From contig DAOUJN010000039.1 of the NCBI GenBank assembly GCA_034422655.1, positions 80,937 through 144,936 of the forward strand: a stretch of DNA of 64,000 nucleotides, given 5' to 3'. Under the pieces are notes generated by a model, which saw only the letters and a program-made list of their open reading frames with translations, did not search any database and was not told the origin of the DNA. Shown piece by piece: positions 22,163-24,916 of this stretch (the first letter of the stretch is position 1; every line of letters starts with the position of its first letter). A program made the position numbers and the translations under genes. This DNA comes from Dehalococcoidia bacterium (GTDB lineage: Bacteria; Chloroflexota; Dehalococcoidia; Lucifugimonadales; UBA3495).

Positions 22163-24916
22163 TTAGGGACAAAGCAACTTTCGCACATTGTCAGCCACGC
22201 TGCGGGCCAAGTCGCAGGCCGTTGCGCCGTACGCGTCTTCCCTGGCGACGTCGGCGCCGGCGTCCAGCAACAACCTTATGTGGTCGCTGAACTTGACCTC
22301 CGGGTTGTCATGCCAGAATCCGCCCGATACTACTGCCTGGTGCAGGGGTGTTCGGAAATCACTATCGGCGGCGTTGGGGTCCGCGCCATGCTCCAGCAGC
22401 AGGACGAGAGTCTGGAGGGAGCGTGCCGGGGAGGATGTAATGGTGTGATTATGGACTGCCTCATGCAGGGGCGTTCGGCGTTCAAAGTCGGCGGCGTTGG
22501 AGTCGGCGCCATGCGCCAGCAGCAAGGCGACGGTCTCAGGGGAGGGAAAATCGGGGTACTGACCGGTCAACAAATGTAACGGCGTGCGCAGCAGGGAATG
22601 AGAGGCGGCGTTAGCATCGGCGCCGTGGTCCAACAGAAGTTGGACAACCTTAAGGTGGGCTTCCAGGTCGGTGTGCACGCGCTGGCCGTTCACCGCGCGG
22701 TGAAGGGGAGTGAGTCCCGACTTACTGCGCGATGTTGCGTCGGCGCCGTAGGCCAACAACAACTGTACGGCATCGGGGCTCTGCTGCCCCGCTGCGGAAT
22801 GGAGCGGGGTGGCATCATTGAAGTTCCTGGCCTCCGGGTCTGCGCCGTGTTCCAGCAGCAGCCTGGCGGCGTCCACGTTGACTTCGTAGCCGGTGATACC
22901 GTGGTCGTCACCCATGGTAATGTGCAGCGGTGTTCTACCGTCGGCGCTCCCGGCGTTCACATCAGCGCAGTGTCCCAGCAGCAGCCGGACAACCTCTGTG
23001 TTGGGGCTGCCGGCCGGGTCGAAAGAAGTGGCAATCAACGCGGTGTGCAGCGGCGTATTGCCTGCCTCGTCTGGCAGGTTGATACTTGCTCTGGCGTCCA
23101 GCAGCAAGGGGAGGGCTTCAAGGTACTCGGGCTCATAGTACAACCAGTGGTCCGAATTGGCCGCCGCCAGGTGCAGGGCCGTCCGCCCCTCCTGGTCTGC
23201 GACGTTGACGTCTGCCCCGGCGTCCAGCAGCAGGCGGATGGCATCAGGATACTGGGGCCCGTGGTAGTCCGAACTGGCTGCCGCTTGGAGCAGGGGCGTC
23301 TTTCCCTGCTGGTCAGTTACGTTGACGCTCGCACCGGCGTCCAGCAAGAGAGCGATCACCTCGGGAGGCCGGGACGTAGCCGCCGCCAGGAGCAGCGGCG
23401 TTTGTCCCCGGTCGTCCATGGCGTTAGCGTCTGCGCCCTGCTCCAGCAGCAGCGCAATGACCTGGGGCAACGGACCGTCGGAAGGGACGCGCCAGGGTTC
23501 CCTGGAATTCACCGCCAGGTGCAAGGGGGTTCGACGGGTATTGTCAACTGCGTTGACGGCGGCGCCCTGCTCCAGCAGCAGCCGGATGACCTCCGGGCGG
23601 GAGCGGGACGCGGCGTTGTGGAGCGGCGTACTATTGTCGCCATTCCTGGCGTCCACGTCGGCGCCGTGTTGCAGCAACAGCCGGACGACCTCCGGCCCGG
23701 AGTGGGTTGCGGCGTAATGCAGCGGCGTAGCCCCCGCGTCGTCACGGGCTGCCAGGTCCGCGCCGCTGTCCAGCAGCAGCCTGATTACCTGGGGGTCGAG
23801 GTCGCCGTTGCGCAACGACCTGTGCAGAATCGTCCGACCGGATTCGTCCCTAGCACTAACATCTTCCCCCCGCTCCAGCAGCAACTGAAAGACTGCCGGT
23901 TCCGCGGTGAATTGGACGGCATCGTCCCACGTAGTAAAGCCTTCGCGCTCACTTACGCCGAAATTGGCGCCATGGTCCAACAGGAGTCGGATGACATCAG
24001 CATTGGCCCCGGCCCAGAAGGCGTAGGTCAAAATCAGTGCGTCGGTTTCATTCTCGGCCTTTACCTCGGCGCCGTGGTCCAGCAGCAGTTCGACAATCCG
24101 CGGGTCTACGCCGCCGGGCCGGGTCATCGACTCGCGCTGTGGGGCAGCTTGCGCAGACTCAATCAGGCTCCCCAGGTAAACAAACAGGGCCGACTGCCCG
24201 AAATCGTCCCTGGCCGCAGCGTCGGCGCCATGCTCCAGCAAAAGACGGACGCTGTCAAGGACATTTTCCCGTAGTTCATCCACGTTCAGGGGCAACTCGG
24301 CGGAGGCTTGTGGTGATGAAACGTATGCGGCTGTCTGTACCGCCGTGTGCAGGATGGGGGTCCCGGATTCATCCTTGGCGTTGGGGTTGGCGCCGGCCTC
24401 CAAAAGCAACCTGACAATTTCAGCATTTCCGTAACCCGCCGCAAAGGCCAGAACGGGAATCCCGACATCAACCTCTGCGTTAGGGTCAGCGCCCCGGTCC
24501 AATTCAGCCTGGACCATGGCGGCCGTCGCGCCGCCCAGCCAGAACTCCAGCGAGCACAGTTGGCCGCAGGGCACGGTTGGGGCCGGCGTTGGCGTCTCCG
24601 GAGATGTCCTGGTTGCAGGCGTCTCGACGGAGGGGCTTGGTGGCAGGGCTTCCCTCGGCAAGGCGGCGGCCATTGGCGATGGAGTTTGAGACGACCTATC
24701 CGGCAGGTGCGTTGCGCTCGGCGTTGAAGTTGCCCTCTCCCCTGTTACCGGTGTCGGATGCCCCGCAGCCGGAGTGGGCGGCAATGCCGGCGTCGTCCTG
24801 GTGACCGGCGGCATGGGAGAGGGAGCCGGAGTGGATTCGTCGCCACAAGCGGCCAGCACTGCGAGGGTCAACGCTGCCAGGGTCAGCGTCGAGACACGGG
24901 CCGGTAGAGTAATCAC
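22163..24916 (-). CDS. Ankyrin-repeat lipoprotein (about 20 ANK repeats)
   Basis: GTG start overlaps the LLM stop (GTGA). Signal plus lipobox LAVLAAC, then a P/T/S-rich linker of about 110 aa, then about 20 units of TPLHxA...(V/I)xLLLxxGAdxNa. Confidence 0.85.
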   Translation of the reverse strand: MITLPARVSTLTLAALTLAVLAACGDESTPAPSPMPPVTRTTPALPPTPAAGHPTPVTGERATSTPSATHLPDRSSQTPSPMAAALPREALPPSPSVETPATRTSPETPTPAPTVPCGQLCSLEFWLGGATAAMVQAELDRGADPNAEVDVGIPVLAFAAGYGNAEIVRLLLEAGANPNAKDESGTPILHTAVQTAAYVSSPQASAELPLNVDELRENVLDSVRLLLEHGADAAARDDFGQSALFVYLGSLIESAQAAPQRESMTRPGGVDPRIVELLLDHGAEVKAENETDALILTYAFWAGANADVIRLLLDHGANFGVSEREGFTTWDDAVQFTAEPAVFQLLLERGEDVSARDESGRTILHRSLRNGDLDPQVIRLLLDSGADLAARDDAGATPLHYAATHSGPEVVRLLLQHGADVDARNGDNSTPLHNAASRSRPEVIRLLLEQGAAVNAVDNTRRTPLHLAVNSREPWRVPSDGPLPQVIALLLEQGADANAMDDRGQTPLLLAAATSRPPEVIALLLDAGASVNVTDQQGKTPLLQAAASSDYHGPQYPDAIRLLLDAGADVNVADQEGRTALHLAAANSDHWLYYEPEYLEALPLLLDARASINLPDEAGNTPLHTALIATSFDPAGSPNTEVVRLLLGHCADVNAGSADGRTPLHITMGDDHGITGYEVNVDAARLLLEHGADPEARNFNDATPLHSAAGQQSPDAVQLLLAYGADATSRSKSGLTPLHRAVNGQRVHTDLEAHLKVVQLLLDHGADANAASHSLLRTPLHLLTGQYPDFPSPETVALLLAHGADSNAADFERRTPLHEAVHNHTITSSPARSLQTLVLLLEHGADPNAADSDFRTPLHQAVVSGGFWHDNPEVKFSDHIRLLLDAGADVAREDAYGATACDLARSVADNVRKLLCP

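Follow-up and report, generated by a model that had tools for sequence, protein, structure and literature searches.

A predicted ankyrin-repeat lipoprotein gene captured by a conserved catabolic operon in a probably sponge-associated SAR202 lineage

The ankyrin gene and its flanking genes

The window analyzed here is a stretch of 64,000 nucleotides from a Dehalococcoidia bacterium (assembly GCA_034422655.1, contig DAOUJN010000039.1, positions 80,937 to 144,936). At 22163..24916 its minus strand carries a gene for a predicted ankyrin-repeat lipoprotein, identified from the list of open reading frames (ORFs), its translation and Pfam matches. Upstream lies the gene for a luciferase-like (LLM) oxidoreductase of 282 aa (24913..25761, minus strand; Pfam Bac_luciferase, E=2e-53) and downstream an ASST-like gene of 371 aa (21022..22137, minus strand; Pfam Arylsulfotrans, E=3e-23); both are conserved neighbors in an operon discussed below. 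The ankyrin ORF comprises 917 intact codons without an internal stop, beginning with GTG and ending with TAA at 22163-22165. As the initial annotation had noted, the start codon (24916-24914) overlaps the LLM stop codon TGA (24915-24913), the two sharing TG within the sequence GTGA (24913..24916, minus strand), and from this overlap we infer translational coupling of the ankyrin gene to LLM. An in-frame TAA immediately 5' of the GTG makes a longer N-terminus impossible, and a later start would delete the signal peptide described below, so that only this GTG preserves it. No clear Shine-Dalgarno sequence precedes the GTG. The spacer to the ASST gene (22138..22162, minus strand) places the ASST ATG at 22137, 25 nt past the ankyrin TAA, again as first described, and contains the ASST Shine-Dalgarno sequence AAGGAGG at 22143-22149.

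The N-terminus had been read as a signal peptide with the lipobox LAVLAAC, followed by a Pro/Thr/Ser-rich linker, and both features hold up. The protein starts with MITLPARVSTLTLAALTLAVLAA-C24-GDESTP, the residues LAVLAA directly preceding Cys24, and the signal may be written MITLPAR-VSTLTLAALTLAVLAA-C24. We took as typical of bacterial lipoprotein signals a positively charged n-region, a hydrophobic core and a lipobox of the form [LVI][ASTVI][GAS]-C. All three are found in the predicted signal peptide (residues 1-24; 24845..24916, minus strand; assigned from the translation, hydropathy and conservation of Cys24), which has a single Arg in the n-region, a hydrophobic core of 16 residues with a mean Kyte-Doolittle value of 2.1, and the lipobox L-A-A-C24. 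The linker, residues 25-116 (92 aa; 24569..24844, minus strand), consists of 27% P, 18% T, 13% A and 11% S and is predicted to be disordered (pLDDT <50 over residues 20-114).

Residues 117-917 (22166..24568, minus strand) form an ankyrin module that we term Cys-capped, delimited by repeat parsing, by the positions of Cys residues and by conservation of the caps in the family described below. It is composed of an N-cap (C117-GQL-C121-SLEFW…VQAELDRGADP), 19 full repeats of 33-55 aa, and a C-cap (GATAC901DLARSVADNVRKLLC916P). A motif count finds 19 LLLxxGA units spaced by 33-55 residues; with the caps this gives about 20 units, the number initially proposed. The Pfam profiles confirm the run, with 318 bits (E=8e-99, 13 stretches) for Ank (PF00023) and 319 bits (E=5e-97) for Ank_2 (PF12796), which exceed the gathering cut-offs of 21.1 and 27.3 bits, respectively; Ank, Ank_2, Ank_4 and Ank_5 all match, with E-values of 1e-66 to 1e-99.

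In an alignment of 14 family members (A1), the first ~460 residues of the protein are collinear with members of ~590 aa. About nine further repeats (residues ~535-880; 22277..23314, minus strand) are absent from these shorter relatives and precede the last repeat and the C-cap. A recent expansion of the repeats by slippage was ruled out: Tandem Repeats Finder detected no DNA-level tandem repeat in the gene at a score of at least 30, and the expansion thus appears to be old.

An AlphaFold2 model with this alignment as input (mean pLDDT 79, pTM 0.64) predicts continuous helix pairs from residue 117 to 917, arranged as a repeat solenoid. Most of the solenoid has a pLDDT of 85-97, with dips at longer inter-helix insertions; residues 1-16 and 20-114, covering most of the signal peptide and the linker, fall below 50. 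The best matching folds found by Foldseek are the 24-repeat membrane-binding domains of ankyrin-1 and ankyrin-B (8CS9, 4RLV and 5Y4D; E=1e-29 to 1e-34, ~27-29% identity). Sequence searches concur, ankyrin-1 and ankyrin-B being the best matches (phmmer E=9e-85).

Comparison with related genomes

About 15 kb surrounding the ASST ortholog was taken from 14 relatives, and the operon genes were located by tblastn. Thirteen of them (12 of the same genus and one of a sister genus) keep the order SBP-permeases-MFS-CMD-SDR-RHDalpha-RHDbeta-LLM-ASST, where SBP is a substrate-binding protein and RHD a Rieske oxygenase, at 75-98% protein identity. In all 13 the LLM gene directly precedes the ASST gene with no ankyrin gene between them; an ankyrin gene occupies this position in the window genome only. 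The LLM orthologs of the 13 relatives are 79-92% identical, and ASST orthologs across the genus are 78-94% identical. A protein search of 40 relatives found no ankyrin ortholog in the 16 other genomes of the genus, and the sole related gene among the 40 lies at an unrelated locus in a different genus (genome G018; see below).

The LLM-ASST spacer of the relatives measures 70-250 nt, from the LLM end …YA(A)LIP-stop to a Shine-Dalgarno sequence and start of the form GGAGG-N-ATGGGTTGGTCA. It sometimes holds one or two palindromic units resembling repetitive extragenic palindromic (REP) elements. Such REP-like units (…CCCTTCCCCCTTGACGGRGGAAGGCCAGGATGGGGGTGAC…) were seen in one or two copies in the spacers of loci L052 (G005:C16, ~9763-9992), L055 and L057.

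In the window the ankyrin ORF replaces the whole spacer, leaving before ASST a 25-nt stub that bears the Shine-Dalgarno sequence. The LLM protein has kept its length of 282 aa and differs at its end in the last two residues only, which are TK rather than the IP of the relatives. One junction of the insertion coincides with the final two codons of LLM, and the other precedes the ASST ATG by about 25 nt. Insertions have struck this spacer repeatedly within the genus, and we interpret the ankyrin gene as a lineage-specific insertion into this variable part of a conserved operon rather than an original member. Judged by conservation of its neighborhood, the gene would not count as a functional member of the RHD-LLM-ASST operon.

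Codon usage also sets the gene apart. Its GC content at third codon positions (GC3) is 0.74 and its score on an index resembling the codon adaptation index (CAI-like) is 0.56, compared with 0.86 and 0.82 for both LLM and RHD alpha and with 0.77 and 0.69 for ASST. This poorer codon usage is consistent with a gene that is foreign or weakly expressed, and together with the GTG start and the weak Shine-Dalgarno sequence it suggests a low level of expression. The difference from the neighboring genes might also point to a mis-assembly that joined the ankyrin gene to the contig, since the source is a metagenome-assembled genome (MAG) of 3.0 Mb in 50 contigs with 3.5% estimated contamination. Such an artifact would require two chimeric joins, one falling exactly on the stop/start overlap and the other 25 nt ahead of the ASST start, without damage to any of the three ORFs, and the GC content of the gene (0.64) is within the local range. 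We therefore regard mis-assembly as extremely improbable.

A search of the interval from the RHD genes through ASST gave neither a sigma-70-like promoter nor an intrinsic terminator. Having no intergenic DNA of its own and no internal promoter, the ankyrin gene would be transcribed only together with its neighbors.

The conserved operon

The rest of the conserved cluster lies at 25875..36177 on the minus strand, as identified by Pfam and by synteny in the 13 relatives. Proceeding upstream from LLM, it comprises genes for RHD beta (25875-26486) and RHD alpha (26608-27882), an SDR gene (28003-28755), two CMD-family genes (28891-29442 and 29567-30118), an MFS transporter of 456 aa (30596-31966; Pfam MFS_3, E=2.5e-41), two ABC permeases (32066-33085 and 33003-33926) and a family-5 SBP (34069-36177), all on the minus strand. 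An ORF of 432 aa at 30570-31868 (minus strand) was rejected as an off-frame shadow of the MFS transporter gene, having a GC3 of 0.49 and ~50% identity to relatives. The tandem CMD pair is shared by the window and two relatives, G005 and G003, and a single copy is present in the other ten operon-bearing relatives, which indicates a duplication polymorphic within the genus.

Two further features were observed at the edges of this region. A small helix-turn-helix gene (133 aa; window 20211-20966, minus strand) lies just 3' of ASST, with a promoter-like site at 20966-20938; only 3 of the 13 relatives have a homolog at that position, and it thus appears to be another variable insertion flanking the operon. 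A perfect palindrome, TCCGCCGCGGCGGA, is located at 25783-25809 (minus strand), ~20 nt 5' of the LLM Shine-Dalgarno sequence, and may define a regulatory sub-unit of LLM, the ankyrin gene and ASST. No phage domains were seen within about 15 kb of the ankyrin gene, where the neighbors are catabolic and transport genes.

The N-terminus of the ASST-like protein (MGWSNHHKDGLIHH…) has no hydrophobic stretch and no visible signal peptide. Because the LLM and ASST proteins both lack signal peptides and the ankyrin protein appears to be built for export, a role as a physical scaffold in their pathway is topologically unlikely.

A family of Cys-capped ankyrin proteins

Most matches to the whole protein were unspecific ankyrin proteins, some of them fungal, at 28-35% identity. 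A distinct family was found by using residues 112-345 as query, which identified members at 40-53% identity, and by a DNA pattern for the N-cap CGxLCxxEFW, which added further members, some of only 26-34% identity. The nearest homolog is 51% identical over the best-conserved 345 residues. The members, about 310 to over 900 aa in length, have in common a signal peptide that in most cases includes a lipobox (LAAC, LTAC, VMAC, LVAC and others), a P/T/S/A linker of 30-130 residues, an N-cap CGxLCxxEFWxG, and a C-cap T-x-C-D-[LV]-A-x7-9-LLC (C-x14-C); the number of repeats varies. All lipoprotein-type homologs have the linker, in variable length. Cys24 does not vary among the 14 aligned members, whose signals otherwise diverge but retain the hydrophobic core.

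The module occurs in several architectures. The related gene in G018 (locus L066, G018:C3, 7426-10965, minus strand) joins a Cys-capped ankyrin lipoprotein module to a C-terminal plant-type leucine-rich repeat (LRR) region (LxxLxLxxNxLxGxIP); the ORF as called there has a long, probably spurious N-terminal extension ahead of the lipobox (MATLMLLLLAAC). Giant Dehalococcoidia proteins of 1200-1840 aa (L175, L206, L247, L152, L262 and L264) have N-terminal RCC1-like Cys-rich repeats, the Cys-capped module and C-terminal LRRs. Outside this group the module follows ordinary Sec signals in Aestuariivita (Rhodobacteraceae) and in a Binatia MAG. The cultured Aestuariivita boseongensis BS-B2 (L164, NZ_JXYH01000005.1, ~4454-5700) carries a shorter version capped by CGELCSIEFW, with a Sec signal and an ORF of ~415 aa from stop to stop. 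Every architecture of the family is predicted to be extracytoplasmic. The delineation of the Cys-capped module as a candidate portable extracytoplasmic cassette is a modestly new element of this work.

The distribution of the family is patchy, as expected of accessory genes. The N-cap motif was found in 6 of 301 genomes of the order to which the window belongs (a reversed control pattern gave no matches); one genome, OZ242258.1, has five copies, and in the genus of a five-copy carrier the motif is present in 3 of 13 genomes. Of 33 confirmed motif loci, 30 are in MAGs of Dehalococcoidia, SAR202 or Chloroflexi, several with sponge-type names; for most of these MAGs the records state no habitat, and the count covers motif carriers only. 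Carriers include Aplysina aerophoba bin16 and SB0662 bins 27 and 29 (PMC5649159). The three homolog loci that were inspected lie beside genes for an IS21 transposase, Uma2, HigBA- or PemK-type toxin-antitoxin systems, TIR and MMPL proteins.

Flexible regions of this kind, with toxin-antitoxin, TIR, AAA/SMC-like and insertion sequence genes, as well as the patchy distribution and the highly variable repeat number reflected in the range of protein lengths, might suggest that the proteins serve contacts with other bacteria or with phages, by masking or binding surface receptors or by binding proteins of co-resident microbes, rather than contacts with a host. No conserved defense-system partner adjoins the family members, and the fusions to plant-type LRR and RCC1-like domains and the sponge-MAG provenance match the pattern of eukaryote-like proteins (ELPs) involved in host interaction (PMC8163846). 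A role confined to microbes and phages thus seems improbable.

No ASST gene was seen in the sequence fetched around the 33 family loci (8 kb or less per locus), and an LLM paralog, only 26% identical and ~2 kb away, was found in just two distant members. As evidence against its reading the initial annotation had named, besides a missing signal peptide, homologs that are never linked to LLM or ASST genes and are scattered at random over lifestyles. The lack of linkage is essentially what we find; a random scatter seems not to apply, given the concentration of the loci in the 30 MAGs just described.

These data also bear on functional co-option, in which the gene was retained because joint expression with the catabolic genes is an advantage. 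An aromatic or sulfated compound from the host might, for instance, induce the operon and with it the surface protein, or the protein might capture a substrate or partner of the pathway. The tidiness of the fit favors such a view: the GTGA overlap, an LLM of undiminished length, a strong ASST Shine-Dalgarno sequence kept 25 nt downstream, no internal promoter or terminator, and an intact 917-aa ORF. It is opposed by the restriction of the arrangement to the window genome, the 13 operon-bearing relatives lacking it, by the near absence of LLM and the absence of ASST genes beside the homologs, by the differing topologies of the ankyrin and the LLM and ASST proteins, which make direct scaffolding unlikely, and by the variability of the spacer, which gains REP-like units in relatives. 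We consider co-option unlikely. Thus, of the surface-tethered ankyrin scaffold in a catabolic operon first proposed, the long lipoprotein-type solenoid stands, whereas a meaningful link to the operon does not, in view of the 13 relatives without the ankyrin gene. The claim of an unusual genomic context is likewise weakened, because that context is a one-off insertion.

Export and host association

The ankyrin protein is almost certainly of the lipoprotein type and extracytoplasmic, as judged from several features of sequence. The genome encodes the lipoprotein-processing enzymes Lgt (PF01790, contig C16, E=2.5e-28) and LspA (PF01252, contig C25, E=9e-35), and similar lipoboxes (…LIVGC and …LAAVAC) are found at the start of the window's two SBPs of ABC transporters, proteins that necessarily act outside the cytoplasm. 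The only other ankyrin gene of the genome, a 391-aa open frame on contig C20 (~7300-8500, minus strand), follows the same plan, with a lipobox (…FLVVLLGC), a P/T linker of ~120 aa and an N-cap LDFW, and has no CGxLC motif. Together with the invariant Cys, the LRR and RCC1-like partners and the Sec-exported versions in other phyla, these observations make a consistent, indirect case for export.

One could suppose instead that the lipobox is unused and the protein a cytoplasmic scaffold: the short n-region contains just one Arg, the GTG lacks a clear Shine-Dalgarno sequence, and the AlphaFold2 model has low confidence over residues 1-16. This is very improbable, because divergent homologs all keep the lipobox Cys and preserve the hydrophobic core, the module stands behind classical Sec signals in other phyla, and the 92-aa P/T linker has no obvious cytoplasmic role.

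The suggestion that the DNA derives from a sponge-associated lineage is borne out by the relatives. ASST orthologs at 82-94% identity are present in SB0662_bin_28, RHO1_bin_4, RHO3_bin_2, SAR202 bin22 (MPMM01) and many Dehalococcoidia MAGs. SAR202 cluster bacterium bin22 (MPMM01) was obtained from the sponge Aplysina aerophoba (PMC5649159), and it is one of several MAGs of the same genus that come from sponges, along with those of the SB0662 and RHO1/RHO3 series (PMC5649159). By this genus membership, the source organism would belong to a sponge-associated SAR202 (Dehalococcoidia) lineage. It had also been stated that large ankyrin arrays are uncommon in free-living bacteria. Among sponge symbionts they are not rare: ankyrin ELPs that carry export signals are recognized as a hallmark of these bacteria, SAR202 bins among them (PMC6306507, PMC8163846). 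Ankyrin proteins of sponge symbionts and ankyphages are reported to lower phagocytosis when expressed (cited in PMC6306507 and PMC8163846; 10.1101/608950). In our literature search nothing specific was found on ankyrin proteins with a lipobox in sponge symbionts.

Relation to known ankyrin proteins

The closest known counterparts are the ankyrin ELPs, or ankyrin-repeat proteins, of sponge symbionts (Nguyen, Liu & Thomas 2014, cited in PMC6306507; PMC8163846). They resemble the window protein in having multiple ankyrin repeats and an export signal and in coming from uncultured sponge bacteria. The two also appear alike in their accessory nature, their variable copy number and length, and their occurrence in SAR202 sponge bins (PMC6306507). 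In contrast, the window protein has a lipobox, by which it would be tethered and not set free, and in addition a long P/T stalk and conserved paired Cys residues in both caps; its gene lacks a promoter of its own and lies inside a catabolic operon. The ankyphage protein ANKp (10.1101/608950), also from the sponge holobiont, likewise has both a signal peptide and ankyrin repeats, and by analogy its proposed damping of phagocytosis and the immune response may be relevant. However, ANKp is a small released protein encoded by a phage gene of 568 nt, while the window protein has 917 aa, is predicted to be lipid-anchored, and has no phage genes nearby.

The membrane-binding domains of ankyrin-1 and ankyrin-B (PDB 4RLV, 8CS9 and 5Y4D) are alike as long uninterrupted solenoids (Foldseek E=6e-34 over ~850 columns). 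They serve as binding platforms for multiple partners, and by analogy the same may hold for the window protein. The likeness has limits: identity is 27-29%, many repeats of the window protein carry insertions of 5-22 residues, there is no ZU5, UPA or death domain, and the ankyrin-1/B domain is cytoplasmic whereas the window protein is predicted to be extracytoplasmic. Ankyrin effectors of type IV secretion systems, as in Legionella, Coxiella and Anaplasma (AnkA), are also bacterial ankyrin proteins thought to target host proteins. These effectors lack a Sec or lipoprotein signal and need the secretion system to reach the host cytosol, whereas the window protein, with its lipobox, would remain on the bacterial surface.

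Interpretation and significance

Our preferred explanation, which we consider probable, is that a sponge-associated SAR202 bacterium encodes here an accessory eukaryote-like binding protein tethered to its surface, whose gene was captured by a catabolic operon to which the link is incidental. The precursor would be exported by Sec, lipidated at Cys24 by Lgt and cleaved by LspA, which would leave the mature protein attached to the outer leaflet of the membrane. The Pro/Thr-rich linker of ~90 residues could act as a flexible stalk, presenting the ~800-residue solenoid of ~20 ankyrin repeats as a large protein-binding surface. By analogy, its likely partners would be proteins of the sponge host or other extracellular proteins, and one possible role is the damping of phagocytosis, as for other sponge-symbiont ankyrin proteins. 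In this lineage alone the ankyrin gene would have taken the place of the variable LLM-ASST spacer and apparently lost its own promoter, being expressed only through read-through transcription and re-initiation at GTGA. As the gene appears not to be original to the operon and its insertion is confined to this lineage, its association with LLM and ASST is most likely incidental.

Several points weigh against this explanation. The signal peptide and its lipidation are predicted from sequence rules, from comparison with the two SBP lipoproteins of the window and from conservation of the lipobox in homologs. From a GTG without a clear Shine-Dalgarno sequence, expression of the ankyrin protein may be low or absent. 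The in-frame, clean fit into the spacer could equally reflect selection for co-expression with the operon, and the role in phagocytosis is a possibility drawn from analogy alone. The two conserved Cys pairs of the caps might, by conjecture, form stabilizing disulfides; neither DsbB nor VKOR was found in the genome, which has only two borderline DsbA-like (Thioredoxin_4) matches, so that the disulfide idea finds no backing in the machinery. The genome nonetheless encodes many exported Cys-containing proteins.

An adaptive rewiring, in which the ankyrin protein is displayed when a sponge-derived aromatic or sulfated compound induces RHD-LLM-ASST, and in which the Cys-capped module is an undescribed extracytoplasmic subtype exchanged as a cassette, strikes us as doubtful. 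If true, such rewiring would tie the sensing of being inside the host to evasion of immunity and phagocytosis, and the cassette would be swapped among sponge-associated Dehalococcoidia as a lipoprotein, in Sec-secreted form or in fusion with LRR or RCC1-like domains.

The locus does not represent a new kind of system, and the proximity of the F420/LLM and ASST genes should not be used for inferring the function of the ankyrin protein. It offers a well-delimited case, with a before-and-after view in 13 relatives, of a symbiont apparently acquiring a eukaryote-like surface protein. Capture of a promoter-less gene in an operon spacer, with expression by read-through and a stop/start overlap, would be modestly new. 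The family, with its lipobox, P/T stalk and Cys-capped module, is open to tests of export and host binding, for which Aestuariivita boseongensis could provide a tractable cultured carrier.

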